Source: Vampirovibrio chlorellavorus (GTDB lineage Bacteria; Cyanobacteriota; Vampirovibrionia; Vampirovibrionales; Vampirovibrionaceae). Taken from it: a DNA stretch of 64,000 bases. The notes beneath the pieces are model-generated. The model had not been told where the DNA came from. It searched no databases and saw only the letters and a list, made by a program, of their open reading frames with translations. Location: positions 70,307 to 134,306 of the forward strand of contig LAPX01000001.1 in NCBI GenBank assembly GCA_001858525.1, in the 5' to 3' direction. This document shows positions 104 through 56,419 of this stretch, piece after piece (positions within the stretch are counted from its first letter, which is position 1; every line of letters begins with the position of its first letter). The position numbers were made by a program, and so were the translations under genes.

Positions 104-1855
104 TTGCTTCAGGATGCGAGCAAAAAATACATTCAAGCAACCGATGGCGATGCTCGGGTTGCCGCCTATGCCTGGATTTCGAAAATCCTGAACTGCATTT
201 GCTTGCCGCAAGACACTGTCGGCATTGCGTTCCAGCAGCGTCCCCAACAGGAGGGCAGTGAATCCAGCGTCAAGATGAAGCTAAAACTAGCGCCTCAATT
301 TCCGTTCAGCCTATCTGAAAACTGCAAACTCCTCTCCCCCATTATGCAGTCAGAAGAAAAACCCCTGCTCGCGCTGTACCAAAAAAAGGGTGCCTGGGTT
401 CCCTCTGAGGAAGCGGTCGCTCGGGGACAAACGGCCTTACAGTACGACTCTGTTACCACTGACTTACCCTTGGCACGGCAAAAATCGTTAGCCAAATTAA
501 TCCAAACCGTACCCGGCATTAGACTGGAAGTACAGGATTTTCTGGGTAGAACGCCGCTTCATCATGTATCAGAGCAAGGCTATTTACCCATTGTCAACGC
601 ACTGTTAAAAGCTGACGTGAAAAAAGATGGCATTGATACCACGGGTTGCTCCCCCCTGCATTTGGCGGCAGGCAGAGGGCATCAAGATACCATTCAAGCC
701 TTTTTAGACGCAGGAGCCAATCCTGATGTGTGTACATATATTGGTTCGCCGTTGCATTCAGCCGCTTTTGGGGGACATCGTGCAGCGCTACTACAACTCA
801 TCAAGGCAAATGCCGCTACAGAATCAAGAAATCATGAACGAGAAACCCCCTTGCACATAGCAGCCTCTCAAGGACATCTGGGAGTCGTGCAAGCTCTCAT
901 TGAAGCAAAGGCAAACATCAATGCCAAAACACAAGACGCAAGAACACCCATGCATGCCGCTGCGCATAATGGGGTTTTGCCAGTGTTGGAAGCCCTAATT
1001 CAGGCAAAAGGGGATATACAGGCTCAAGATCATGCCGGATGCAGACCCATACATCTGGCCGCCGAGGCTGAAAATCAAGATGTTTTAGAACGACTGCTGG
1101 CACTCGGGTCGCCTGTCAATTCAGTGGACCGCTCAGGATTAACCCCGCTTCATTATGCCGCTGCGATGGGGCATCAAGGGACCGTGAATACATTGCTTCA
1201 TCATAAAGCCAATGTGTTTGCGACTGATCACACCAGAAAAACGCCACTCCATTGGGCCGCTTTACAGGGCCACTCTGAGACTATCAATATCCTGATTGGA
1301 CATCAGGCTGATATAAATGCAAAAGACAAGAGTGGCCAGACCCCACTTCATCTGGCGGCTGCGGAAGGAAAGTTAGACGCACTGAATACCCTGATTTTAG
1401 AACATTACGCTGACATTCTGGAACCAAACAATCAGGAACAAACACCGCTTCATTTGGCAGCGGCTGCCGGTAAGCTGGATGTGGTGAATAGATTGATTGT
1501 ACTTGGGCATGGCATGGGGATGAATATTAATGCACCCGATGAGCAAGGACAAACACCACTTCATCTGGCGGCCTTACGCGGGCGCGCGACTGTTGTGGAG
1601 ACCTTGCTAGGCAACGGGGCTGATCTTCAAGCCACCACATACCACGGTGGCACACCCTTGCATCTGGCGGCCAGTAGTGGAAAAGCGGCAGTGGTAGCCA
1701 CCCTGATTCAAGCTGGGGCCAAGCTGAATGCCCAGGAATTATCTGGTAAAACACCCCTGCACTACGCGAAAAGTCAGGACATCGCAAATATATTACTGGT
1801 CGCTGGTGCCAAGAGGTCCATTAGAGATCATTCTGGGCACGCGTCAGGCTGGTAA
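104..1855 (+). CDS. Ankyrin-repeat protein with about 13 ANK repeats after a ~150-aa N-terminal region. The frame is open back to nt 2, so the gene may start upstream of the window.
   Basis: Reiterated TPLH(L/I/W)AA...G(H/N)..(V/T)..L(L/I)..GA(D/N)(I/V)NA(K/Q)D ankyrin motifs across the ORF. No in-frame stop between nt 2 and the first ATG at 104. Confidence 0.85.
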   Translation: MLQDASKKYIQATDGDARVAAYAWISKILNCICLPQDTVGIAFQQRPQQEGSESSVKMKLKLAPQFPFSLSENCKLLSPIMQSEEKPLLALYQKKGAWVPSEEAVARGQTALQYDSVTTDLPLARQKSLAKLIQTVPGIRLEVQDFLGRTPLHHVSEQGYLPIVNALLKADVKKDGIDTTGCSPLHLAAGRGHQDTIQAFLDAGANPDVCTYIGSPLHSAAFGGHRAALLQLIKANAATESRNHERETPLHIAASQGHLGVVQALIEAKANINAKTQDARTPMHAAAHNGVLPVLEALIQAKGDIQAQDHAGCRPIHLAAEAENQDVLERLLALGSPVNSVDRSGLTPLHYAAAMGHQGTVNTLLHHKANVFATDHTRKTPLHWAALQGHSETINILIGHQADINAKDKSGQTPLHLAAAEGKLDALNTLILEHYADILEPNNQEQTPLHLAAAAGKLDVVNRLIVLGHGMGMNINAPDEQGQTPLHLAALRGRATVVETLLGNGADLQATTYHGGTPLHLAASSGKAAVVATLIQAGAKLNAQELSGKTPLHYAKSQDIANILLVAGAKRSIRDHSGHASGW

Positions 1856-1976: not shown

Positions 1977-4688
1977 TCAGGCAGCCTGGAACTGTGGCGT
2001 TTCTAAGGTTGTCCAGCCTTGATTACTCCACTGGTAGACCTTGCCAGTCACGGGATCAAACACGGTCAGGTTGATCCATTGATTTTCAACCAGATTTCGC
2101 ACGGCTTGACTGGTTTTGATAATTTCCTGAACCCGTTCCAAGGGTGCTTCAATGCAAACCATCAAACGCTGGGGATAATGATAGGGCGCTCCATCGTTGT
2201 CAAAGAGGGACTCATAGGGCAAGCCCAATTGCAAATCACTACCATTACCAATGTAGGTGCCAAACAGACCTACCACATTGTGCACGTATTTTTTGCCACT
2301 GCCAAAGCGACTCTGATTCAAGGTTGAAAAGCCGTATTGCAAATTAATCCAGGCTCCCACCACCATGGGCGCGTTCATAATGGTGGTCAAAATACTGGCA
2401 TCCGAATCGACTTGCCAGTCATAAGAATGCAAGAAGCAACGTCCCTCCAGATCCAGGGATTTAATTGATTCACGGTTACAAATAATAAAGGCCTGATTTT
2501 TGGACAAACCCCATTCCGGACGGGTTTGAGACCAGTCAAAACTCAACTCCTGAGCCTTCTGAGAGTTGGACTGAAACCCAGGTGTGCTGAACCGTTTTTG
2601 CCGGTTCAGACTATTCAGCTGTGTGGCTTGTTCAAACACTTTTTTCAGGGCCAGAAAATGTTGTTGCTGTTGATTCGGAATCACATCCTCATTCAGAAAA
2701 ACAACATCATCCGTGGTCGTATTATGTTCAGCGGCGATAAAGCGGGTATGCTCCGGAATGGCCCAGCCCGCAAGTATGAGGGCCTCCCGAACATCGGGAT
2801 GATTCAGAATTTGGCACAGTACCAGTGCGTTGTAGCCACCGCCATTGGCACCGCAAGCCCCACAATCCAGAGCAGAGGCGTAGGGGTTATTGCGGCTTCG
2901 GGCGTTATGCCCACAGATAATCACAAACTCGGCAAAAGGTTGACGAAATCCCAGCAGCTTCAGAATACCCTTGGCCATTTCCACTTGCTCAGGGATGGCC
3001 ATACCCAGGGTTGAATGAGAATGATTGCAGGTCTGCACATCCAATTTGGGCATCAGTCCCAACAGGGGGCTCAGGGTATTCACCACGGATTGTCTGACCT
3101 TGCCAACCGGTGAAGCCCAGAACGTATCCTTCAACAGGGTTACGGCATGAAACAACCCAAAACTTTCCACGTAAGAAAAAGTGGCAAAGGTGTCTCGTTT
3201 TATTTTTTTCAGAGCGTAAATCCACTGATTCCGCAAGGGAATCCCCTGACGCAACAACTTGCCGATGGGGTTATTTTCCAGGAACGGCGAAGGCGATTCG
3301 GGAATGGTGTACTGAGGCTCTAGCAGAATAGGACAGAGCGGTACGGCCTCGTTGCTGGCATAACTGATTTTTCCGATAGGAAGCCCAAAGAAGCCGGCAA
3401 AGCCATAGGTTTGAATGTTGCCGCAACTTTCCAGAAATTTGCGATACGGCTCAGAACGAACATCAATGCAAAAGACCGCCTGAGCATCGGGATGCATCTG
3501 TACAGGCTTTGCAGCCTGTTTGGGTTGCTGAAGTTGTTGCGTCAAGTTGACCAACAACGAACGGTTTTGAGCACATTCCAAAGCCCGCATCATCAGGGTC
3601 AGGACTTGAAATTCATCCACAATGTCGAAGTAGCGCAGTAACTCTGGAACATGATTCAACAAAATCGACTCACGTTGCGAATGAGCAGCCGACTGGAAGA
3701 AAGCCGCCTGACTGAGAGTGCGCATTCTGGCGCCATATTGCTGTACCAGATCGGAGTCCGCAGTCATCGGTTCCTTGGAAGCGGAGCGGGGCCAATTACT
3801 TTCCACACAAGCAAAGTGATAAATGAAACAAATCAGCAAATAATCGTTCAGCAGATCCTGATGCCTGGGGTTCTGGGTCTGCCGGTACTGAATGTAACCC
3901 ACCCAGCCTGGCATTTGTTTTAGATGAAATTGAATCAAACGGTCCTGATCCTCAACGGATAAATCCGCTTCCAGGCAGAGCTTTTCCAGACTGCCAATGG
4001 CAGAGGCCGGTGCTTCCGCATCCAGAATCAAACCCTTGACCATCGCGCGCATGGCTTTTTTCGTGGCACCCGGCATGCTGTCATCATGCAGCATTAACTT
4101 GGCCCAACTGGCTCGCAAGGGCAACTCCTGATTGGGCATGGCCCAAATGGCTTGCCCCTCATCCAGATAAGCTGCCAGCCACTTGGTGACTTGCTCATGA
4201 ATCCAATGACTCGTCAGGGAAGGGAGCGGCTGATGGTCTTGCAACAAAGCAGGTGGTAAGGCCTCCCGAATGCGGGACTCCATTTGCGCTTGAGTAGTCT
4301 GAGATACTGCCAATTTAACCGCAGTGCCTTCAGACAGAATGATCGAGATTTCATCACGCAAGAGCTGTTTATAGCTGATGGACTGATTCACAAACCCAAT
4401 CTTGTTATCCAGACCCAATTCAGACTGGGCCTCATCCAAGACCCGATCAATATCAGCCAGGGAGAAGGCTTTCTTTTGAAATAATCGGCGTATGACATCC
4501 TGAGCTTCACTCACTGAGAAGCCCAAATCCAGAGAGGCCTCTTTCAAGGCTTGGGCAAAAGGCAAATGTTCAAAAGTCACCAAAGGATTACAGGCATTAA
4601 ATGTTTGCAGTGGCCAAAGTTTACCGTACTTTGACGCATGATGCTGAATGGTAGCCATCAACGATTCGGATGCTTGGGAGTGACTCAT
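1977..4688 (-). CDS. dabA: DabA-type subunit (DUF2309) of a DAB energy-coupled inorganic-carbon uptake complex.
   Basis: 903 aa. Beta-CA-like metal-site motifs FCIDVRSE (C-x-D-x-R) and [24 protein letters not shown] (H...C). Lies immediately downstream of a NuoL/MrpA-like membrane subunit on the same strand. Confidence 0.75.
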   Translation of the reverse strand: [903 protein letters not shown]

Positions 4689-4723
4689 GGGAATTGCTCC
4701 TTTAAGAAGTCAAAAAACTGGCT

Positions 4724-6268
4724 CTAGAAACGGGCTGAAAAAGTGCTCTGCTGTGGGTTTACACCCGCGGCGTTCAAGAAAAAGACATAACACTTTTCTT
4801 TAAGAGACGTTGGTATCGGTAACAGGTTTAAGGTAGCCAACCAGGCTAGGAAACCGGCTATCAGAAAAACCGCATTGGTTAGCGTCAGCAACATTGGCTG
4901 ATCGGAAATTTCTGCCTGATGGAAAGTCGGGAGCGCGCCCACAGCCAACCATTCATACAGTAAATAGGCCCCCACCAGTAACAAACTGAACAGAGTGGCA
5001 ATGGTCAAGCCTTTGATACCGTTGCCCTTGGTTTTAATAATGGTGGTTTGAATAAACAGCGAAGACAGCACCAGAACGCTCAACAACAGGGCAGGCAGTT
5101 GGGCCAGCAAATCTCTCAGACCTTCAATTTGCAGCAGTAGCAACCAGCTTGCCCCAACACTCGCCGCGATAATACCGGCAGTGCGCAAGCGCTGGGGGAC
5201 GGAGCTTTGGGCCTTCTCCGCCTGCTCGTTTTTCACATTGCGAATTGCTTGTCGGTACTCAATCACACTGCCCGCAGACAGAAACAGGCGCGCTTTAAAA
5301 AAGCCGTGAACCACCAAGTGAAAAATGGCCAAGTGAAAGGCGCCCAGTCCGCATTCCATCATCATAAAGCCCATTTGCCCAACGGTGGAAAACGTCAGGT
5401 AACGCTTTACATCCGATTGTACCAACATGGCGGAACTGCCATACAGTGCGGACACCAAACCCATGATCAAAATAAAGGCCATCACGGTTGGTTGGGAGCC
5501 CAACAGCGGCGCTATTTTGGCAAACAGAACGGCCCCGGCGTTCACAAATCCGGCATGCATAATGGCTGAAACCGGTGTGGGGGCTGTCAGGGTATGAACC
5601 AGCCATTTTTGGAATGGAATAATGGCAGTTTTGGAAAAAGCCCCGATGCTCACGAAAAGCAAAGAGAACAACACCGCCTGATTGTGCGGTTGGCCAGCCA
5701 ATGCGTTCCAGTCAGACAAAAACAAGCTATTACTGAGGGTAATGAGACCCGTTACCCCAATGACCAGAAATAAATCGCCGACTAAAAAACGATTCAAGGC
5801 CATGCGAGCTGAGTTAATGGCCGCCGGTGTTTTGGCATGTCCAATCAGAAAATACATCATAATGCCCGAAAACATCCAGGCCCCAACCGTAATCAGGGCG
5901 TGGTTACTCACCACAAAAAGAAGCAAGGAGGCAATTAACAACTTGATTTTCAGAAAAAACAAGGGGTAGTCTGCATCTGTTTGCAGGTAGTGATAAGCAA
6001 ACCGCTTCACCAGCAGCCCCATCAATAAAATGTAGGGCACCAGCAACGCTTGTAGCGGCCCATCCAGAAAATAACCGGTCGATGACCCAGGATACGTGGT
6101 GAAAGACTGAAAACTCCATAAAACGCCCAGAAACAGGGCAATCCAGGCAGACGTTTCACTCCACTGGCGCACTTCGGTACAGGCCCCTCTGGACTTCAGG
6201 AGGTATAAAGCCAGGGCACTGATTCCGTACAGGGCAACAATAGCGACCAATAACAGGTTCAAAACCAT
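4724..6268 (-). CDS. dabB: DabB-type proton-conducting membrane transporter, NuoL/MrpA/NdhF family.
   Basis: 514-aa polytopic membrane protein with NuoL-like helices (e.g. MHAGFVNAGAVLFAKIAPLLG, SVIEYRQAIR). Paired with the DUF2309 gene 35 nt downstream. Confidence 0.75.
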   Translation of the reverse strand: MVLNLLLVAIVALYGISALALYLLKSRGACTEVRQWSETSAWIALFLGVLWSFQSFTTYPGSSTGYFLDGPLQALLVPYILLMGLLVKRFAYHYLQTDADYPLFFLKIKLLIASLLLFVVSNHALITVGAWMFSGIMMYFLIGHAKTPAAINSARMALNRFLVGDLFLVIGVTGLITLSNSLFLSDWNALAGQPHNQAVLFSLLFVSIGAFSKTAIIPFQKWLVHTLTAPTPVSAIMHAGFVNAGAVLFAKIAPLLGSQPTVMAFILIMGLVSALYGSSAMLVQSDVKRYLTFSTVGQMGFMMMECGLGAFHLAIFHLVVHGFFKARLFLSAGSVIEYRQAIRNVKNEQAEKAQSSVPQRLRTAGIIAASVGASWLLLLQIEGLRDLLAQLPALLLSVLVLSSLFIQTTIIKTKGNGIKGLTIATLFSLLLVGAYLLYEWLAVGALPTFHQAEISDQPMLLTLTNAVFLIAGFLAWLATLNLLPIPTSLKEKCYVFFLNAAGVNPQQSTFSARF

Positions 6269-6366
6269 AAAAAGCCGGCCTCAAAAGTAATCTACGATTA
6301 CCGTCAGTATGAGATAAATCTGTCGATAAGTAAAATTAATGATTTTTATATTTTTTATTACAAAAA

Positions 6367-7248
6367 CTAATGGCCTGCCTCGATGGCGGCCAGAGAGTCC
6401 TGAATAAAATCCTGAAAGGCCAGGATTGCCTGAGAGGGCTGAGGCGTAGCCAACAGCTTGATTTGAGTTGCTTCCAGCGCCGGAAGACGTTCCTGCGCAT
6501 GTGAAGAATGTAACAACTCCGGGGGGACACTGGTAATGGGTAAAACGGTAACCCCCAAGCCCCCGCGCACAGCGGCTATGTTTCCGGCGATACTTTGACT
6601 GGTATAAACTTGTTCCCAGCCGATATTGTGTCGCTCCAGCGCTTCAATGGCCCGAGAACGATACACACAGGGCTGAGGGGCAAGAACCAATCGAACGTTA
6701 CCAGCTTCCAGCGCCTGTTCCAGATTATAGCCCTTTCCCTGAATCCACACCAGTGGCTCTTCCCACAGAGGAATGGCTCGTTCCAGCTGATGCGAAGGTT
6801 CCTGCTTGAACACAATCAAGTCATAATCCCCTTGCTCATAGGCTTCCAGCAGCTTGAGGGTCAGTTCACAGTTCACTTCCAGTCGCACCTGCGGGTACAG
6901 GTTGGTGAATCGAGCCAAAATATTGGGCAAATAGACTGTGGCAAAATCCTCCGGGGAGCCGAAACGGATTCGTCCTGCCACGTTGGTTTGGTTAAACTCA
7001 CTGATCAGCCCTTCGTGCTGAAGCAACAAATTCTCGGCCTTGGCCAAAAACGTTTGCCCTTGCGGGGTCAGGTTTACATTCTTCTTGGCCCGATCGATCA
7101 ACGCCACTCCCAGCAGGGCTTCCAGCTTTTGGATTTGCTGGCTAACAGCAGATTGACTTAGCCCAACCTGATTGGCCGCCTTGGTAAACTGACCGGCATA
7201 GGCCAGCTTAACGAAGGTATAGAGCAACTGGGGATCAATAAATTTCAT
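6367..7248 (-). CDS. LysR-family transcriptional regulator.
   Basis: N-terminal HTH LLYTFVKLAYAGQFTKAANQVGLSQSAVSQQIQKLE. 293 aa with a typical LysR substrate-binding domain. Confidence 0.9.
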   Translation of the reverse strand: MKFIDPQLLYTFVKLAYAGQFTKAANQVGLSQSAVSQQIQKLEALLGVALIDRAKKNVNLTPQGQTFLAKAENLLLQHEGLISEFNQTNVAGRIRFGSPEDFATVYLPNILARFTNLYPQVRLEVNCELTLKLLEAYEQGDYDLIVFKQEPSHQLERAIPLWEEPLVWIQGKGYNLEQALEAGNVRLVLAPQPCVYRSRAIEALERHNIGWEQVYTSQSIAGNIAAVRGGLGVTVLPITSVPPELLHSSHAQERLPALEATQIKLLATPQPSQAILAFQDFIQDSLAAIEAGH

Positions 7249-7268
7249 CAGGCGCTTTCAGGCAAGAT

Positions 7269-7949
7269 TCAAGGTACCTGTTTTTCAATCTGACCCAGGG
7301 TCATATCAGGGCGAACTTCTTCTTCCAGATTGGCGATGACCGCAGACAGGGGTTCTGGTTTACAAGAGAAGGGGTCAATCAGCATGGTTTCCCCGCTTTG
7401 CAAGCGGTACTTCCAGCCATACAAATGAAGAGCCCCCGCTTCCAGACGTTTGGCCACTTCCGGGTAGGTCGCCAGGTTCTGCAATTGTTGAATAACATTC
7501 CGACGAATCAACTCATTCAAACATTCATCCAAATCCTGATGAACTTCCAGCGAATCAAGAACCTCCAAATTAGGTGCCAACCACTGATAAATCGAAGACT
7601 CCTGTGGTAAATCCTTCAGACTGAACATGGCCTTCAAGGCAGCGCAGTCGGTATGACCACAAACAATAATATGGTGAACATTCAGCATGGTTAGCGCAAA
7701 CTCTATGGCAGCAGCTTCACTACTGCTTCCCCCCACCTGGTATTTGGGTATCAAATTCCCAGGGTTTTTGACAACAAAAAGCGTCCCGGGGGGCGACTGA
7801 GTAATGATGGCTGGCTCCACCCGCGAATCGCAGCAGGTAAACATCAAGGCCACCGGATGCTGCTCGTGAGACAAAGGTTGAAAAAATTCCTTGTTCGGCT
7901 CAAATACCTTATCTTTAAAGACGATGGTGCCTTCTGCCAGCCTTTTCAT
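7269..7949 (-). CDS. Beta-class carbonic anhydrase.
   Basis: CCDSRVEP (CxDxR) and HTDCAAL (HxxC) zinc-ligand motifs. 226 aa. Confidence 0.85.
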   Translation of the reverse strand: MKRLAEGTIVFKDKVFEPNKEFFQPLSHEQHPVALMFTCCDSRVEPAIITQSPPGTLFVVKNPGNLIPKYQVGGSSSEAAAIEFALTMLNVHHIIVCGHTDCAALKAMFSLKDLPQESSIYQWLAPNLEVLDSLEVHQDLDECLNELIRRNVIQQLQNLATYPEVAKRLEAGALHLYGWKYRLQSGETMLIDPFSCKPEPLSAVIANLEEEVRPDMTLGQIEKQVP

Positions 7950-8159: not shown

Positions 8160-8618
8160 TTAGTCGTCCGAATCGGCCAGGCGTTGCTGATAGGTAGCCA
8201 AGGCCAGGGAGACCAAATCCTGAAAGGCTACAGAGGCTTTTTCCGCGCCGTAATTTTCATGGTACTCGGCGGTGAATAAACCAATCAGCCCGGCCAGCAC
8301 TTCAAAGACGGCCTGGGTATCAATTTCATCATCGTCATCGGTACAATTTTCCAGCAAAAGCGGGTACAGTTCTCCCATAATATCCAGGGCCAAATCGCTC
8401 TGAAATTCAGGAGCTGCCGGTTCTTCGGGCGTGGCTTTGCGAGCAAAGGCATCCCCTTTGGCACTCACACTAGCGGTCACCGTTTTCTGATTCGAGCCCT
8501 TTTGACTGGTTTCTTTTGAGCTCGTGGCTTTTTGACTCGTGCCCTTTTTACTCGTTTCCTTGGTTTTCTCTCCGGAACCACTGCCCTTTTTTACTGCCAT
8601 TTCCGCCTCCCGAATCAC
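8160..8618 (-). CDS. Hypothetical protein with a K/S/T-rich basic N-terminus and an acidic C-terminal domain. The start may be the internal MAVKKG.
   Basis: ORF only. Compositionally biased N-terminus (KTKETSKKGTSQKATSSKETSQKG). No recognisable family. Confidence 0.45.
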   Translation of the reverse strand: MIREAEMAVKKGSGSGEKTKETSKKGTSQKATSSKETSQKGSNQKTVTASVSAKGDAFARKATPEEPAAPEFQSDLALDIMGELYPLLLENCTDDDDEIDTQAVFEVLAGLIGLFTAEYHENYGAEKASVAFQDLVSLALATYQQRLADSDD

Positions 8619-8697: not shown

Positions 8698-9906
8698 TTA
8701 AGCCTTTAAGACAGGGCGCTGCCCAGCCTCTTCAATCAGGCCCCGCAATTCGGATTCGGTCCACACGGGCACTGGCGGCTTGTTCCTTAAAAATTGAGCA
8801 TAGGATAAATCATCGGTGTTTCCGGCGTGACTGGCCCCCCACTCAAAGGCCTGCTGGGCCATCTCCAAGCGTTCCGGAACCCAGCTGAATTGAATCTGCG
8901 GGATTTGCTGACCCAACAGTAAACGTGCCACCGAAACCAGTTTCAAGGCTTCCGATTCGGAGATCAGTCCCGCTTGCGGCCCGGCAATGGGTTGATGGGA
9001 GGGATGAGGCCACAGTTGAATGATCAATCGTTGAAAGGCACCGGGGTGAGCCTCCTGAAATTCACGCAGCAAGGCCAAATGGGCCACTCGCTGCTCCCGG
9101 CTTTCCAAAGGGCCAGCTTCCAACCGGGCCAGGGTGGGCATGCCCCGCTGATGGGCCAAGGCCACGATCTCCAGCCACCGTTTTACAGTCAGCTTTTTGG
9201 GTGCAATGCGAGCCCGATGAGCATCCTCTAGAATTTCTGTGCCGAAACTTTCCAGAACCCGCACCCCATGATCCTTTAGGCAGTCCAGTATGTAGGCCTC
9301 GCTACGGTTGCTCACCACGGCCAAAAAGGCAATCTCATCGGGCGAAAAACCCTGAATCCGGCAGGAGGCAACCTGATCCTGAATGTGATTTAGCACCCGC
9401 AAATAGGTTTTCAGCACCGTGGCAGCCTCTAATCCGGGAATAACCAACTCCGAGTCAAAGCCGCCGCCACTCACGGTCAGCCATTGGGATTGCTGGGTTT
9501 TGACCGCTTGCAAAATGGCATCAATATCATCAATGGACACACGATAAGCCTGGGGATTGCCCTGATTTGCAGGGTAAGGATAAAGCGCCGGGGCCATCTC
9601 GCACACATTGGTGAGGAACAAAGAGTGTCCCGTGCCGTAGGCAATGTCGCCACCTGCCTGTTGCGCTTTCAGGGCCTCAGCCACCGAGCGCAACCGGGCA
9701 CAATCGGGCGGTGCTTGTAGAGCCAGTAAGGGCACCGCTTGTGAAGGGGTCAGGGGCTGCCCATCTTCAACGGCATCCAGCACAGCCGAGGCATTCCCCT
9801 GAACTGAGCGGGCAGTGACTGTTCGATTGCTTAAGGCTTGAGAAAACATACTGCTATTGTAGAAGAAACAGAAAACAGAAACAGTTTTCCGGCACGGGGG
9901 CGGCAA
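8698..9906 (-). CDS. MqnC/MqnE (aminofutalosine / cyclic-DHFL synthase) family homolog that lacks the canonical radical-SAM CxxxCxxC cluster motif. The probable start is the internal MFSQALS.
   Basis: Family-typical blocks are present: GDIAYGTGHSLFLTNVC, TVSGGGF, LESFGTEILEDAHRARIAPKKLTVKRWLEIVALAHQRGMPTLARLEAG...RVAHLALLREFQEAHPGAFQRLI. Where CxxxCxFCAF is expected, the sequence is TNVCEMAPALYPY (checked on the DNA). Confidence 0.6.
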   Translation of the reverse strand: MPPPCRKTVSVFCFFYNSSMFSQALSNRTVTARSVQGNASAVLDAVEDGQPLTPSQAVPLLALQAPPDCARLRSVAEALKAQQAGGDIAYGTGHSLFLTNVCEMAPALYPYPANQGNPQAYRVSIDDIDAILQAVKTQQSQWLTVSGGGFDSELVIPGLEAATVLKTYLRVLNHIQDQVASCRIQGFSPDEIAFLAVVSNRSEAYILDCLKDHGVRVLESFGTEILEDAHRARIAPKKLTVKRWLEIVALAHQRGMPTLARLEAGPLESREQRVAHLALLREFQEAHPGAFQRLIIQLWPHPSHQPIAGPQAGLISESEALKLVSVARLLLGQQIPQIQFSWVPERLEMAQQAFEWGASHAGNTDDLSYAQFLRNKPPVPVWTESELRGLIEEAGQRPVLKA

Positions 9907-10005
9907 GCCCCAAAAAAAAGGCGGTTATCAAAACCGCCTATATCTCATCATCATCATTCAGTTGGGAAATAAATCTCTCTATCCAATCAACAGATTTAAT
10001 CGGGG

Positions 10006-11103
10006 TTAGGCAATCCAGGCCGGGATGCCATTGGGCTCCGCCAGTTGATTGATGGTCAGGCCATTCACAGTGGTGCTGAGAATATTGCCCAGATCAGCTG
10101 TGGGGGCCTCAGGTTCTGCCAATAAGTTCATCAGGTCCGATTGGGCCTGAATGGGGACAATCAGGTTTCCAGCAGCCAGACCAAAGGGCTGCCCGGCCCA
10201 AACACCCGGAATAATACCGATGGCCGATGCTGGTGGCTGAGTGACCCGGGCTTGACTCAGCAAGAATTCCAACTGGGGAAGCGCTTGCTGGGCCGCGGTC
10301 AATTGAGTGGTTTTTTCAGTAATCTGGGCTTGCAATTCGGCGGCTCGGGCTTGTACACGGGCCTTATCTTCCTTGCCCGTCTGATCGGTCTTAAGCACTT
10401 TGGCCCGAAGATCTTGCAGATCCGTAATGTCTTTTTGCAATGTACTGATTTGAGCTTTCAACTGTAGAATGGCCAAGCCAATTTGAGTGACATTGTTGGT
10501 GTTGGGAGCGACCGGTTGACCCACAGGCTGAAATAAGGGGGAGCCACTGAGGAACGTATTGGGAAACAGTTGAGCCTGAGAAGCAACGGGGGTGACAAAA
10601 TTCTGGAAGGGGGGCACCACAGGGGTTACAAAAGGGTACAGGGGTGGCACCAGATTGGGCTGAAATAAGCCATTTCCGCCAAAAATCTTATTGGTGGAAT
10701 CCATGGTTCCCAGCAAAACGTTCAGGGAGTTCGGATTTCTCCAAATCAGGGGGTTAAAAGCTGTCAAATCCTTGTTCAGACTGGCTGAAGGGGTGAAGAT
10801 GTTGCTGCCAAAACCGGGGGATAAAATATTACCGATGAGTCCGGTGGTCCCGTTTAAAACACTGACCGGATTGGCATTTTTGGGAATGGGATTGTTTCCC
10901 AGCAACAAAAACGGAGAGTTGCTGCCGCCGGAGGAAATACTGCCGGAAAAATCATTGACTGAACCCAAAATATCGCGAGGGTGTAAAAAGTCATTGCCCC
11001 GACCATCGAAAACACTACCGGACAATACGCCAGCATTGACAGTGGTACCGGCAAAAGCACGCTGGTTGGTCAACGGGGTAAAAGAACTAGACAGAGTCGA
11101 CAT
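10006..11103 (-). CDS. Hypothetical protein. The N-terminal half is G/N/S/P-rich and low-complexity; there is a central coiled coil.
   Basis: Long ORF. The coiled-coil segment is LQLKAQISTLQKDITDLQDLRAKVL...AELQAQITEKTTQLTAAQQ. Confidence 0.55.
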   Translation of the reverse strand: MSTLSSSFTPLTNQRAFAGTTVNAGVLSGSVFDGRGNDFLHPRDILGSVNDFSGSISSGGSNSPFLLLGNNPIPKNANPVSVLNGTTGLIGNILSPGFGSNIFTPSASLNKDLTAFNPLIWRNPNSLNVLLGTMDSTNKIFGGNGLFQPNLVPPLYPFVTPVVPPFQNFVTPVASQAQLFPNTFLSGSPLFQPVGQPVAPNTNNVTQIGLAILQLKAQISTLQKDITDLQDLRAKVLKTDQTGKEDKARVQARAAELQAQITEKTTQLTAAQQALPQLEFLLSQARVTQPPASAIGIIPGVWAGQPFGLAAGNLIVPIQAQSDLMNLLAEPEAPTADLGNILSTTVNGLTINQLAEPNGIPAWIA

Positions 11104-11389: not shown

Positions 11390-12211
11390 CTATGATTTCT
11401 GGGGTTTCACCATTTCAAAGAGCAAAATAGCGGTGGCCGTGGCCACATTGAGGGAATCCACGGTGCCATGCATGGGTATTTTGACCAGAAAATCGCAGTT
11501 TTTGCGCACCAGTGAGGCCAAACCCTTGCCCTCGCTACCCATAATCAGCAACATGGGCATCTGGTAATCCTGCCGGTGATAATCCACGGCCCCGGTATCG
11601 TTGGCCGCCCCGGCCACCCAAAAACCGGCATCTTTAACCTGTTGAATGGCCTGATTGAGATTAGAGACCACGGCGATGGCAACGGTTTCTTCGGCCCCGG
11701 AAGCCGTTTTAGAGACACCCGGGCCAAAACCGGCGCTGTGCTGCTTGGGAATAATCACCCCGTCAATGCCTGAGGCATCGGCCACCCGCAAAATGGCCCC
11801 AAAGTTCCGGGGATCGGTTACTCCATCCAGCATCAACAGGCGGGGGTGTTTACCCTGGGCTTTTTTGGCCTCACAAAGCTGCAGTAGGACAGGCAGATTC
11901 AATAAGGTTTTGGGGGCCACCGAGGCCATGACCCCCTGATGGCTGATGCCGCCCTCGTCCCGATCTTCGGCAATATCAGGGTTGGCCTCAGCGAAGGCCG
12001 CCTCTTGCCCCCGCAGCATCTGATCCAGCTTTTGGCGCGGTACCACCTGCACAGGAATTTTGGCCTGCCGGGCACTGTCCTGGATGGCCTGCACCCGCTT
12101 ATCAGGTTTTAACCCTTCCGCCAGAAAAATTTTAAACACCTTGGTCGGGCTGGCATCCAGCAGGGCTTTGACGCTATTTTTACCGTACACATAACGAGAG
12201 CCACCGCTCAT
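11390..12211 (-). CDS. rlmB: TrmH/SpoU-family 23S rRNA 2'-O-methyltransferase (RlmB-like).
   Basis: SpoU motifs GVTDPRNFGAILRVADASGIDGVIIP, LLIMGSEGKGL, IPMHGTVDSLNVATATAILLFE. Confidence 0.8.
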   Translation of the reverse strand: MSGGSRYVYGKNSVKALLDASPTKVFKIFLAEGLKPDKRVQAIQDSARQAKIPVQVVPRQKLDQMLRGQEAAFAEANPDIAEDRDEGGISHQGVMASVAPKTLLNLPVLLQLCEAKKAQGKHPRLLMLDGVTDPRNFGAILRVADASGIDGVIIPKQHSAGFGPGVSKTASGAEETVAIAVVSNLNQAIQQVKDAGFWVAGAANDTGAVDYHRQDYQMPMLLIMGSEGKGLASLVRKNCDFLVKIPMHGTVDSLNVATATAILLFEMVKPQKS

Positions 12212-12246: not shown

Positions 12247-13401
12247 TTAGGGCGTTTTAGAGGATGAAGCAGAGTTATCATAACTGAAAGGATGACGGAT
12301 CCGTTCTTTCAAGGATGTTTTTTGATCCGGTTGGGGTGGTGGTGGCACCGGAAATGGCAACCAGCCATTGGCCCCCACAGCAGGGGCGGTATCATTCAGG
12401 GAAACCATTTGGGTCCGCTCACTGGAAACATCGTAGCGCCACACGCCCAAAAACTTCTTTTCTTTCAAATCGTAGGCCCAGGCCTTAATCAACACCACGT
12501 CATCGCTATTGGGTTCCCACCCCAGCGGTTGAATGTCCCAGTTCAGCTTTTCAATGTGTGCTAAATTGCCATGCTGAATCCAGTAATGCTGAATAACCCG
12601 CTGCACTTCCGGGTAAATGGTCACGGTGCCCTTGGCCTGATCATGGATGAGAATATTGGTGGTGCGCACCCCCAGGTGCAAAATGCCACTGCGCTCCTTG
12701 AACAGCAGACGATTGCCGGTGTAAGACCAATCCACCACGGTTAGGGTTCTAAAATCAAAGCGACCCACCCGGTTAAAACCCACATCGGCCAGGGATTTTC
12801 GAATGCGGGTGGTCTTTCGGGGATCAAAACGAGCGGCATAGGTAGCAAAGGCCACCGGGGGATCAGGCTTGGCTTGGGCCGCCTCACTGGGCAGTCGTTC
12901 CAGCGGCGGCTGAGGGAGCGGCGTGACCGGGACCCAGTACAATCTGGAAATGGTCTGGCGATCGTCTGGGGTAAACAGCACCTCTGTGTAGACAAAGGCG
13001 GTTTTGTCCGGGGCAACCACCGGGGGACTCTGAATCAGGCGTCGCCCTTCCAGATTCCACAGATCCAACTCTCGAGGATAGGTATTATAAGGTTCATAGC
13101 GGACATAGTCCGGGATATTGGACGGGCTATCCACGGACAGAGAAGCGTTATTGGCTGGCATCCCATAAACGGGCCGCGTTTCCGGGGCCATGGGCGGCGC
13201 AGGGGTGACCTGAATGGGGATAGCCGGTTTTTTGGCGGCCTCTACCCAGCCCAAAGCCAGGACGAAAAGGGCCATTAGCCCACACACGCTCAAGCGCCAA
13301 AACCGCTGCAACATCGGGATACGCATAGCGTTATTGTGGCACGGCGGTAAGATGTCGCCGTCCTCAATCCAAAGGAACTTCTGGCTAAAAGGATGAAGCA
13401 A
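12247..13401 (-). CDS. Hypothetical exported or membrane-anchored Pro-rich protein. The start is probably an internal Met (MRIPMLQRFWRLSV...).
   Basis: N-terminal hydrophobic segment LSVCGLMALFVLALGWVEA. No recognisable catalytic motifs. Confidence 0.55.
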   Translation of the reverse strand: MLHPFSQKFLWIEDGDILPPCHNNAMRIPMLQRFWRLSVCGLMALFVLALGWVEAAKKPAIPIQVTPAPPMAPETRPVYGMPANNASLSVDSPSNIPDYVRYEPYNTYPRELDLWNLEGRRLIQSPPVVAPDKTAFVYTEVLFTPDDRQTISRLYWVPVTPLPQPPLERLPSEAAQAKPDPPVAFATYAARFDPRKTTRIRKSLADVGFNRVGRFDFRTLTVVDWSYTGNRLLFKERSGILHLGVRTTNILIHDQAKGTVTIYPEVQRVIQHYWIQHGNLAHIEKLNWDIQPLGWEPNSDDVVLIKAWAYDLKEKKFLGVWRYDVSSERTQMVSLNDTAPAVGANGWLPFPVPPPPQPDQKTSLKERIRHPFSYDNSASSSKTP

Positions 13402-17404: not shown

Positions 17405-18292
17405 TTAGACAGAGCCAGCCAGTTCCGGCAGCACATCAATGAATTCAGGCTCAATTTTGTCCTGAATCACCCCGATGGCTTGTCCCCGCCATAACAGCAG
17501 CTTCACAGCCTTGCGGATTTCCACATCAGCGTCCAGGGTCATCTCGTTCACGTACATGCCCACAAAGGCGTCAGCGGTCTTTTTATCCAGGCCACGGGCG
17601 AACTGCAAGGCATAATCCAGGGCTTCTTCCCGATGTTTCAAGCCATGCTCAATGCTGCGCTTTAACACCCGTCCAATTTTCTGAATCATTTCCGGCCCTA
17701 AATCCCGACGGATGGCGTTGCCGCCCAGGGGCAGGGTCAGGTTGCACTCTTCAAACCACCATTCGCCCAGATCCACAATCTTCACAAAGCCCTGTTGCTG
17801 ATAGGTCAGCTGGCCTTCGTGAATGATCAAACCGGCTGCAAACTCACCGCTTTCCACCCGTTCCATAATCTGATCAAAAGGCACCACAGCGGTTTTCAGT
17901 TCCGGCTCCCAAATTTTAAGGGCCAGGTAAGCCGTGGTCATTTCACCAGGGATGGCCACCGTAATTTGCTTCAATTCATCACGGGTCATTGGTTTTTTGG
18001 CAATCAGAACCGGGCCGTACTTGTCCCCGACACTGGAACCCACATTGAGTATGGCGTATTTGTCATGCAAATGGGCATAGGCGTGATAAGAAATGGCGGT
18101 CAACTCGTAGGTGCCATTCAAGGCTTCCCGGTTCAGGGTTTCAATATCGGTCAAGATGTGCTCGAAGGTCAGGCCTTCGGCATCGATTTTGTGATGGGCC
18201 AGAGCCCAGAACATAAAAGCATCGTCGGAGTCCGGGCTGTGGGCCACTCGAATGACAGCCGGGGCGGGTTTGATTTCGCTCATAATTAGCAC
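17405..18292 (-). CDS. mqnD: 1,4-dihydroxy-6-naphthoate synthase (MqnD, futalosine menaquinone pathway).
   Basis: The N-terminal segment SPDSDDAFMFWALAHHKIDAEGLTFEHILTDIETLN resembles the MqnD consensus SPCPNDTFMF.AL. About 290 aa. Confidence 0.7.
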   Translation of the reverse strand: MLIMSEIKPAPAVIRVAHSPDSDDAFMFWALAHHKIDAEGLTFEHILTDIETLNREALNGTYELTAISYHAYAHLHDKYAILNVGSSVGDKYGPVLIAKKPMTRDELKQITVAIPGEMTTAYLALKIWEPELKTAVVPFDQIMERVESGEFAAGLIIHEGQLTYQQQGFVKIVDLGEWWFEECNLTLPLGGNAIRRDLGPEMIQKIGRVLKRSIEHGLKHREEALDYALQFARGLDKKTADAFVGMYVNEMTLDADVEIRKAVKLLLWRGQAIGVIQDKIEPEFIDVLPELAGSV

Positions 18293-55144: not shown

Positions 55145-55369
55145 GGAATACTCCTTAAGAACTCGTGGTTGACTCTCTCACTATAATACGGGCTTCAAAC
55201 TGCTCTCACATCCGGTGAAATCAGGGGCACGGGGTTCCTGTTGGCAGGCAGTCGTAAACCAAAAAACAATAATTGCCTCAAAAACACATTGCCCAATGAA
55301 ATAGAGGAACATCCTCCAGATTTCCACTCGCGTAAAAACTCCCCCTATTATATACAAAAATCCCCTATA

Positions 55370-56419
55370 ATGAAGTGTATGGAAGATGCAGAAGCTGGAC
55401 AGAGAGTAGAGAAGAGCATTGAAAGGCGCGATGATAGGCGAGTCGATAGCTTTGGGCTGGACCGCTTTGAAGAAGGTGCTGCCGCTTTTTTCAGCTACCT
55501 GGATGTGACCCGTAATTTATCCCCCCATACCCTGCGGGCTTACCAATCAGACATGAGCAACTTTCTGGGGTGGCTGGATGGCTTTTCCCTTGAAAAACAG
55601 TCGTTAGAGGCCAATCCCAGCACGTTCTGGCGAGAAATTCCCGCCGCTTACATCGCCCATCTCAGCGCCCAGCAGTTATCCAAAACCTCTTTGGCTCGCA
55701 AAGGTTCCTCCCTGAAAACATTTTTTAAATTTCTGATGAAAGAACGCTACTTTGAAGAGAATAGCCTGCCAGTGGTGTTCCACAGACCCCGCCTGTCCCG
55801 CAGGCTGCCCAATTTTATTTCTCCAGCGGAAATTGAGCAATTAAGGAGTGCCGCCCTCCATGAACCGGAATCGCCCCTGAAATGGCGAAATCTGGCCATT
55901 CTGGAAGTACTCTTCTCTTCCGGAGTTCGGGTCAGTGAACTGTCCTCACTGAATGTGGGACATGTCAACTGGGAGGAGCTGGAACTGCTCATTCAGGGAA
56001 AAGGCGGTAGACAGCGGCTGGCCTTTTTCAGTCAGCGGGCCCTGCAAGCACTGCTGCAATACAAAGCACTGTGGTCCGAGTTGTGCGCGGAGCCCATGAC
56101 CGCGGATTGCCCGTTGCTTTTAAATAAAAATGGCACCCGTCTGGATGTGCGCAGTATTCGGCGCATTTTGCTGGAACTGGGAAAGCAGGCCCAGGTGGAT
56201 AAGCCCATGCACCCCCATGTGTTTCGACACAGTTTTGCCACCCATTTACTCAACAATGGGGTGGATCTGCGCATTGTGCAGGAGTTGCTGGGGCATGTCA
56301 GTATCCGCAGCACCCAGATTTACACGCACGTCAGTACGGAACGCCTGAAGCGGGCTTATATGAAAGCCCATCCCAGAGCGGCTCAAGGTAACACCACCCA
56401 ACAGGGGAAGAGGGTATGA
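55370..56419 (+). CDS. Tyrosine recombinase (XerC/XerD family). The ORF track starts at 55241; I chose an internal Met.
   Basis: Catalytic R...HxxR...Y region HPHVFRHSFATHLLNNGVDLRIVQELLGHVSIRSTQIYTHV. N-terminal SAM-like core-binding domain. Confidence 0.8.
   Translation: MKCMEDAEAGQRVEKSIERRDDRRVDSFGLDRFEEGAAAFFSYLDVTRNLSPHTLRAYQSDMSNFLGWLDGFSLEKQSLEANPSTFWREIPAAYIAHLSAQQLSKTSLARKGSSLKTFFKFLMKERYFEENSLPVVFHRPRLSRRLPNFISPAEIEQLRSAALHEPESPLKWRNLAILEVLFSSGVRVSELSSLNVGHVNWEELELLIQGKGGRQRLAFFSQRALQALLQYKALWSELCAEPMTADCPLLLNKNGTRLDVRSIRRILLELGKQAQVDKPMHPHVFRHSFATHLLNNGVDLRIVQELLGHVSIRSTQIYTHVSTERLKRAYMKAHPRAAQGNTTQQGKRV

Follow-up and report, generated by a model that had tools for sequence, protein, structure and literature searches.

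Radical S-adenosylmethionine (SAM) enzymes are defined by the chemistry of a [4Fe-4S] cluster with SAM. The described systems closest to the gene considered here are three such enzymes of a single clade: CofH (TIGR03551/PRK07360; FO synthase subunit 2, or 5-amino-6-(D-ribitylamino)uracil--L-tyrosine 4-hydroxyphenyl transferase), MqnC (cyclic dehypoxanthinyl futalosine synthase), and MqnE (aminofutalosine synthase). The gene in question lies on the minus strand at positions 8698..9906 of a 64,000-nucleotide stretch of the Vampirovibrio chlorellavorus genome (this whole stretch is referred to as the window), and its product, while sharing with CofH homology over the full length and the same predicted (βα)8 barrel, lacks the CxxxCxxC motif that ligates the cluster. 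On balance, this protein is probably functional yet radical-dead, descended from a radical SAM enzyme of the CofH type, and represents a family specific to Vampirovibrionia. The family constitutes a cluster-less branch of the CofH/MqnC/MqnE clade, without a Pfam or NCBIfam model of its own, and no description of it was found in the literature searched: a search for cluster-less CofH/MqnE homologues or for radical SAM pseudo-enzymes returned nothing relevant, and there is no mention of the gene in the paper on the V. chlorellavorus genome.

Descent from the CofH/MqnC/MqnE clade

The original prediction, made by eye, presented the protein as a full-length homologue of the MqnC/MqnE family that had lost its cluster motif, and profile comparisons, including those that it proposed, agree with the homology. 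All nine NCBIfam matches (E 1e-20 to 1e-46) are to models of the CofH/MqnC/MqnE clade, with alignments spanning almost the entire protein, though every score is far under the curated cut-off (260-434 bits): 158.6 bits (1.8e-46) for CofH PRK07360 (cut-off 426), 148.9 for the clade-wide model TIGR00423 (260), 144.6 for MqnC TIGR03699 (428.1), 142.1 for CofH TIGR03551 (374.1), and 141.1 for MqnE TIGR03700 (434.55), the MqnC and MqnE scores being similar to those for CofH. Likewise, Pfam Radical_SAM (PF04055; 17.2 bits, cut-off 29.5) and CofH_C (PF19288; 16.2 bits, cut-off 27) match under their cut-offs, the C-terminal RDTxY being missing, and none of the Pfam or NCBIfam models includes the family at its cut-off. 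An exact-sequence look-up of the protein returned no match, the closest relative being 73% identical, and the source annotations of family members range from "hypothetical protein" to ThiH, a label given by JGI pipelines, FO synthase subunit 2, MqnC, and aminodeoxyfutalosine synthase. Judged by this full-length homology, the protein belongs by descent to the CofH/MqnC/MqnE clade.

The predicted structure agrees. An AlphaFold2 (AF2) model built on the family alignment is confident (predicted local distance difference test, pLDDT, 87.7; predicted template modelling score, pTM, 0.88) and contains eight β/α units, so that in the model the (βα)8 radical SAM barrel is intact, answering the question of barrel retention that the original prediction had left to AlphaFold. 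The top Foldseek match of the model is MqnE 6XIG (template modelling score, TM, 0.77 over 370 aligned columns), followed by HydE, BioB, PylB, HydG, and ThiH. MqnE (PDB 6XI9/6XIG) is the closest solved structure, 6XI9 being the only solved relative detectable by sequence (phmmer 1e-9). Descent from an unrelated TIM-barrel family, named in the original prediction as a refuting scenario, is excluded. The more distant enzymes ThiH, HydG, NosL, and HydE/BioB/PylB have the same full TIM-barrel radical SAM fold (Foldseek E 1e-8 to 1e-16) at 12-17% identity, but all of them, unlike the protein described here, ligate the [4Fe-4S] cluster via CxxxCxxC.

Within the clade, the label of MqnC/MqnE family held only at the clade level, as the closest cluster-bearing relatives appear by sequence to be the CofH-annotated proteins of the P0063/P0201 type, rather than MqnC or MqnE. 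The best cluster-bearing match of the family profile is P0063, at 273 bits, the next canonical matches scoring about 180 or below, and P0063 itself passes the CofH model TIGR03551 (396 bits, cut-off 374; 329 for MqnC and 289 for MqnE). In tblastn searches against every family locus, P0063 scored highest (about 130-200 bits), while MqnC, MqnE, or another CofH scored about 80-145. Among the relatives of P0063 (57-83% identity) are NCBI entries from Vampirovibrio/Cyanobacteria metagenome-assembled genomes (MAGs) that carry the name CofH. A 9-10-residue insertion after β2, with IPG[LI], is common to the family and the P0063 clade only, and the spacing from TNxC to SPxE is 88-89 residues in both, versus mostly 79 (75-84) in other CofH, MqnC, and MqnE. 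MqnE and MqnC, by comparison, are about 20-27% identical to the protein and possess neither this insertion nor this spacing. Derivation of the family from the CofH lineage, for which the case rests on the shared insertion and on the similarity scores, and not on the neighbor-joining (NJ) tree, is probable from these sequence features, not proven.

The P0063-type genes have a neighbourhood of their own, different from that of the family. They are part of a conserved three-gene unit (L026:2663-5627, and also loci L027, L028, and L022), in which the gene of the radical SAM enzyme (380 aa) overlaps or abuts, at its start, a preceding gene for an acyl-CoA-dehydrogenase-like protein of 362 aa, and is followed by one for an unknown protein (222-233 aa). 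No CofG is present within 10 kb of this unit, and a polyprenyl synthase and a UbiD-family decarboxylase are found 3-6 kb downstream. The annotation of the P0063-type clade as FO synthase may be wrong in turn.

The former cluster loop and the conserved segments of the barrel

In alignment with canonical enzymes, the loop TNxCxxxCxFCAF reads TNVCEMAPALYPYP, with the first cysteine retained, the second replaced by proline, and the third by tyrosine; the original prediction was correct that one cysteine of three is left. The replacement is not peculiar to one genome. A word-indexed search returned 42 close relatives (37-73% identity), several of them named Vampirovibrio chlorellavorus or Vampirovibrio sp., and when the profile was searched in full against 1.84 billion representatives, the family grew to about 60 protein clusters. 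The consensus LTNxCE[LM]xPxLYPYP is found in the former cluster loop of all 57 full-length relatives, TNxCE[LM]xPxxYxYP is carried by all members from the profile search, and the second and third cysteines are proline and tyrosine, respectively, in at least 87% of the members. The most divergent member, P0072, reads TNICELHVVQPPYG in this loop. A single conserved cysteine column exists among the 57 full-length sequences (C83, 93%), and it is occupied by aspartate in P0025, P0028, P0030, and P0031. As the second and third cysteines are replaced and no other conserved cysteine is present, the canonical [4Fe-4S]/SAM radical mechanism is, on this sequence evidence, unavailable to the family.

One might propose that the protein is still a radical SAM or another Fe-S enzyme, with a cluster held by non-canonical ligands, considering that Cys83, Glu84, and His257 are conserved across the family; non-canonical cluster motifs do occur within the superfamily, in ThiC, QueE, and HmdB. 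This proposal has to contend with the single cysteine column and its replacement by aspartate in four members, with proline and tyrosine at the other two positions, and with the concomitant loss of positions on the SAM and cluster side (the His of GHxE, T242, Q265, T268, D341, and RDTxY), and we regard it as highly improbable. Outside of the window, P0096, a member of the canonical CofH/MqnC/MqnE clade, has a cluster loop reading TNVCKSGSSYFPGA, which may be an independent motif loss or a frameshifted gene call.

The distribution of the family is narrow. In a scan of species-representative genomes, it was found only in MAGs labelled Vampirovibrio, Vampirovibrionales, Melainabacteria, or filamentous cyanobacteria, the latter label referring to two soil MAGs, of which the sole complete locus, L014, shows Vampirovibrionales synteny; a metagenome scan contributed four short loci only. 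In an NJ tree for which distances were capped, since uncapped distances saturated, the 25 cluster-less family representatives were monophyletic in 200 of 200 bootstraps, so that the cluster was lost once. The ratio of nonsynonymous to synonymous substitution rates (dN/dS) is 0.14-0.29 among the window and loci L001, L009, and L010, with a value of 0.24 in the unsaturated comparison of L001 and L010 (dS 0.42). The gene is under clear, if relaxed, purifying selection.

These data also bear on whether the gene is a decaying pseudogene or an artefact of assembly or sequencing, as could be suspected from the loss of key catalytic residues and from evolution faster than that of its neighbours. The open reading frame (ORF) is intact and full-length in about 60 clusters from independent assemblies, the dN/dS values are those of a constrained gene, new family-specific positions are invariant, and the structural model is confident. 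Such a scenario is effectively refuted by the intact relatives, the dN/dS values, and the family-wide loop, and we give it next to no credence; a frameshift or sequencing error, the other refuting scenario of the original prediction, is excluded by the same loop being present in every full-length relative.

Conservation was compared for 54 family members, 40 sequences of the P0063 clade, 74 other CofH, and 40 MqnC/MqnE sequences. Of 49 positions conserved throughout the clade, 27 are retained in the family, including T80, N81, C83, G129, G130, E172, G195, R212, K219, W225, G246, E249, H257, R309, W323, and G338. Held in common with CofH are the conserved positions of the scaffold, TN, GG, SPxE, R, W, GxxE, H, and R. 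On the other hand, only 7 of the 41 CofH-specific conserved positions are kept and 34 are altered. Lost are both other cysteines, T242, the His of GHxE (H247), Q265, T268, D341, and the C-terminal RDTxY, and the PGTAAEIL segment is degenerate. The SAM-type motifs GG, SPxE, and GxxE are kept while H247, T242, Q265, T268, and D341 are changed. Two further substitutions pointed out in the original prediction are also real, EAGPLE in place of GHxE and HPGAFQRLII, which is found in the translation; the His of GHxE persists in distant family members, such as P0053, P0059, and P0036, and is lost in the clade of the window.

At the same time, conservation of at least 90% is newly seen at 12 positions particular to the family, including P87, Y92, E141, K147, and D171. 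Among 12-residue segments, conservation is highest in the insertion (IPGLEAATVLKT), in the former cluster loop (SLFLTNVCEMAP), and in GFSPDEIAFLAV (GFSPDE), and the most conserved segment of the whole family is the clade-specific insertion (IPGLEAP). Judging from their placement in the model, these three segments would follow β2, β1, and β3, respectively, that is, on the catalytic face of the TIM barrel. This pattern indicates, as far as sequence conservation can, that a new site has been built, and not that a CofH pocket was retained or that the protein simply decayed. Pseudoenzymes and prozymes, like this protein, have lost hallmark residues while retaining the fold and remaining under purifying selection, but the former active-site loops being the most conserved parts sets the family apart from them and points to a new site, not to decay alone. 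The description of the gene in the original prediction as a neofunctionalised or pseudo-enzyme paralog was the right class of explanation, given purifying selection and the retained barrel.

Gene neighbourhood and candidate partners

The ORF that the original prediction placed at 8698-9906 is intact (402 aa counted from TTG 9906), but it is on the minus strand and likely begins 57 nt further in, at ATG 9849, since all homologues begin at the equivalent methionine, and since TTG 9906 comes immediately after the T-tail of a strong terminator, AGGCGGTT-TTGAT-AACCGCCT followed by T8 (Table 1). This terminator divides the transcript of the upstream gene from that of the gene described here. A -10-like hexamer, TACAAT, is found 7 nt ahead of ATG 9849, and the region 9850-9939 shows no recognisable Shine-Dalgarno sequence; the mRNA may be leaderless or near-leaderless.

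Table 1. Coordinates of the cluster-less CofH-like gene, its motifs, and its immediate neighbours in the window (all on minus strand where a strand is given).
Feature	Position	Strand	Basis
Small gene, 146 aa from ATG 8600, Lys-rich tail, acidic C-terminal domain	8160..8600	-	
Coding sequence, cluster-less CofH-like protein, 383 aa, likely ATG start, stop included	8698..9849	-	ORF list, homologue starts, NCBIfam homology, AF2 model
EAGPLE, residues 244-249, replacing GHxE of the β5 motif	9103..9120	-	
GG motif after β2 and clade-specific insertion GGGFDSELVIPGLEAAT, residues 128-144	9418..9468	-	
Former [4Fe-4S] loop TNVCEMAPALYPYP, residues 80-93; Cys2 = Pro, Cys3 = Tyr	9571..9612	-	
5' extension of the mechanical ORF (TTG 9906), probably untranslated	9850..9906	-	Absent from homologues; TTG abuts terminator T-tail
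Intrinsic terminator of the upstream gene; 8-bp stem, 5 GC pairs, T8 tail	9909..9939	-	
Neighbouring upstream gene (365 aa, of no known family), in synteny with the CofH-like gene in nearly all Vampirovibrionales loci	10006..11103	-	
rlmB	11390-12211		
384-aa protein	12247-13401	-	

The core layout recurs across about 25 loci, with rlmB sharing a strand with an unknown gene of 360 aa, and the other strand carrying an unknown gene of 280-365 aa that is followed by the cluster-less gene. In the window, the corresponding block consists of the 365-aa gene, rlmB, and the 384-aa gene, and it is kept in nearly all loci; the 365-aa and 384-aa proteins match no Pfam or NCBIfam model and were seen only in Vampirovibrionales-type loci among those fetched. 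The 365-aa protein has a coiled-coil-like middle and a conserved NGVPAWI end. As an operon partner in the window it was rejected, on account of the strong terminator between the two genes.

Homologous proteins are known to function together: dead paralogs activate the trypanosomatid S-adenosylmethionine decarboxylase, and CofG and CofH form a natural two-protein system, both cases serving as precedents. The main rival explanation is one in which the family provides the dead, prozyme-type paralog of a heteromer, stabilising or regulating a radical SAM enzyme that belongs to the same clade and is active, the candidates being the P0063-type CofH-like enzyme, CofG, MqnC, and MqnE. The canonical, probable sister clade is present in the same bacterial group, most of the catalytic and substrate positions are gone, and relaxed yet clear purifying selection in combination with fast evolution is typical of pseudo-enzymes. 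CofG and CofH are, moreover, normally paired homologous barrels, fused in FbiC (PMC8498797). However, no radical SAM gene adjoins the cluster-less gene in any of about 25 loci, no CofG is found nearby, the P0063-type gene is part of a separate operon that does not include the cluster-less gene, and the conservation peaks in former active-site loops and not on an obvious outer surface, which would be unusual for a pure scaffold, although a face-to-face contact is conceivable. We consider a prozyme role possible, if rather doubtful. Canonical MqnC, MqnE, and CofH, whose presence elsewhere the original prediction had suggested checking, were looked for across the window and every locus fetched, and none were found except in L019 (Sulfurospirillum, a canonical MqnC-type enzyme) and L022. 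The 64-kb window contains no other radical SAM gene of the CofH/MqnC/MqnE clade, and no CofG, photolyase, or F420 gene.

A link to menaquinone synthesis can be considered in the same context. The futalosine (mqn) pathway has been reported for Vampirovibrionophyceae (PMC11874023), and the original prediction assigned mqnD to 17405..18292 of the window. The protein encoded there (minus strand) does belong to PF02621 (VitK2_biosynth, 249 bits), but this family spans both MqnA and MqnD, no NCBIfam equivalog matched, and MqnD specifically is not established. The cluster-less gene is unlinked to mqn genes in every locus.

In most lineages, a class I aminotransferase is found on the downstream side. 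It directly follows the gene in L004, L006, L007, L008, L014, L015, L016, L020, L023, L025, and L029-L032, while in L013 a single gene comes in between; in L020, the pair of the two genes is all that the neighbourhood has in common with other loci. The closest solved structures of this aminotransferase are Escherichia coli YbdL and kynurenine aminotransferases (KAT; glutamine transaminase K is a second name in those entries), and PRK09082, a "methionine aminotransferase" subfamily, ranks third among its NCBIfam matches. As an ancestral neighbour, the aminotransferase gives a hint of amino-acid or 2-oxo-acid metabolism. It is followed by a class-II aldolase-family gene in L006, L007, L012, L013, and L014, and such a gene is found nearby in L016 and L025. 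The aldolase-family protein as MtnB of methionine salvage is unsupported (21-67 bits for TIGR03328, cut-off 137). A different setting is that of the divergent P0072 (L024:5557-9155). The gene immediately upstream of it is thymidine-phosphorylase-like, the next one beyond, on the opposite strand, encodes a PNP_UDP_1 nucleoside phosphorylase, and P0072 has no aminotransferase alongside.

A narrower, metabolic form of the main explanation can be proposed from these neighbours, in which the protein binds or processes a by-product of SAM or an intermediate of sulfur or aromatic amino-acid metabolism in a salvage route, the ligands being 5'-methylthioadenosine (MTA), 5'-deoxyadenosine, 2-keto-4-methylthiobutyrate (KMTB) or methionine, and 4-hydroxyphenylpyruvate or tyrosine, and the partners the YbdL/KAT-type aminotransferase and the class-II aldolase-family protein. 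The aminotransferase, with its structural matches and its PRK09082 match, is adjacent in at least 11 lineages, the aldolase-family gene often accompanies it, P0072 is near two genes of nucleoside phosphorolysis type, and the GG, SPxE, and GxxE motifs survive. Nevertheless, the aldolase-family protein is not MtnB-like, the aminotransferase is apparently on its own promoter, none of the partner genes are present in the window, and the whole argument is one of guilt by association inside a single bacterial order. We find this explanation, in such specific form, quite unlikely.

In the clade of the window, without the aminotransferase, its place directly downstream of the cluster-less gene is always occupied by the small gene at 8160-8600. 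The product has a low-complexity Lys-rich N-terminal tail and an acidic C-terminal domain of about 80 aa that is nearly invariant, with proportions of nonsynonymous differences (pN) of 0.02-0.06 versus synonymous (pS) of about 0.6, between lineages whose cluster-less proteins are about 51% identical. No Pfam or NCBIfam match was found for it, nor any similarity to proteins of the aminotransferase-type loci. No terminator was found in the 98-nt gap between the two genes, and they are probably co-transcribed in this clade.

Further downstream, 1977-7949 of the window (minus strand) carries a cluster for inorganic-carbon uptake, which comprises genes for a beta-carbonic anhydrase, a LysR regulator, DabB (Proton_antipo_M), and DabA and is restricted to the V. 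chlorellavorus-like loci. The original prediction noted that the gene is just upstream of this cluster. The adjacency is real, but with the small gene in between, and it is confined to the window, L001, L009, and L010, the V. chlorellavorus-like clade, carrying no functional signal; a functional link was rejected for this reason. The lineage with this cluster is reported to be non-photosynthetic and predatory. Elsewhere in the window, 104-1855 (plus strand) encodes a 583-aa protein consisting almost entirely of ankyrin repeats, unusual for bacteria, which may be a prey-directed effector, and 55241-56419 (plus strand) a gene of the tyrosine recombinase/phage-integrase family.

A putative non-radical site and its significance

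For a functional, radical-dead descendant of a CofH-type enzyme, the following course of events can be envisaged. The cluster was lost once, probably from a CofH-type barrel, with the fold and about half of the clade-wide scaffold kept. The C-terminal face of the barrel has probably been rebuilt into a new site that would bind, without redox chemistry, either a ligand or a partner. The outcome would be a subunit that binds small molecules or is a pseudo-enzyme, or else an enzyme with new acid/base chemistry, for which the invariant C/D83-E84, D107, D193, R212, K218, E249, and H257 would be the candidate residues. The most plausible ligands, from the motifs preserved, would be of the adenosyl or amino-acid type (SAM, S-adenosylhomocysteine (SAH), MTA, 5'-deoxyadenosine, methionine, or tyrosine), because GG, SPxE, and GxxE survive. 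The YbdL/KAT-type aminotransferase, as an ancestral neighbour, would be a possible metabolic partner, replaced by the 8160-8600 protein in the clade of the window. A bolder version of this, in which the cluster loop and the insertion have been rebuilt into a non-radical catalytic site for a substrate of the adenosyl or amino-acid type, possibly in concert with the aminotransferase, the protein having a genuine new activity and not being a dead paralog, appears to us unlikely, slightly more so than a prozyme role.

A number of observations weigh against the reading of a functional descendant with its own ligand and partner. The grouping of the family with the P0063 clade was recovered in 29.5% of NJ bootstraps, the distances being saturated. 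The ligands and the mechanism are read from conservation patterns. The gene evolves much faster than its housekeeping neighbours, with 39-62% identity where the aminotransferase shows 70-91%, which is more in keeping with an accessory or pseudo-enzyme role under loose constraint than with that of a core enzyme. The same numbers imply that the genomes are not very distant, the fast-evolving gene notwithstanding, and among such fairly closely related genomes the synteny with the aminotransferase may be inherited and not selected. The gaps between the two genes (46-230 nt) weaken the link further, and the aminotransferase probably has its own promoter, as three of the gaps, in divergent genomes, share a promoter-like element TTGACA-N17-AATAAT (L004:9210-9371, L006:9153-9347, and L008:9219-9449). 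Finally, the aminotransferase is absent from the side of the gene in the clade of the window (the window, L001, L009, L010, and L002/L011), and no homologue of it is found anywhere in the 64-kb window.

For annotation, the family presents a trap, as the labels provided by pipelines (ThiH, FO synthase subunit 2, MqnC, aminodeoxyfutalosine synthase) would wrongly credit Vampirovibrionia with steps of thiamine, F420/FO, or menaquinone synthesis. In addition to the trap, it presents a case of scaffold re-use, though one restricted to a single bacterial group. The case is a clean natural one, with a single loss, a probable cluster-bearing sister clade that shares the insertion, about 60 clusters, and a confident model, and a clade that is without the cluster and yet under selection can show which other uses the radical SAM scaffold may have. 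If the new non-radical site is real, then an oxygen-labile [4Fe-4S] cluster would have been shed in a non-photosynthetic sister lineage of the oxygenic Cyanobacteria.

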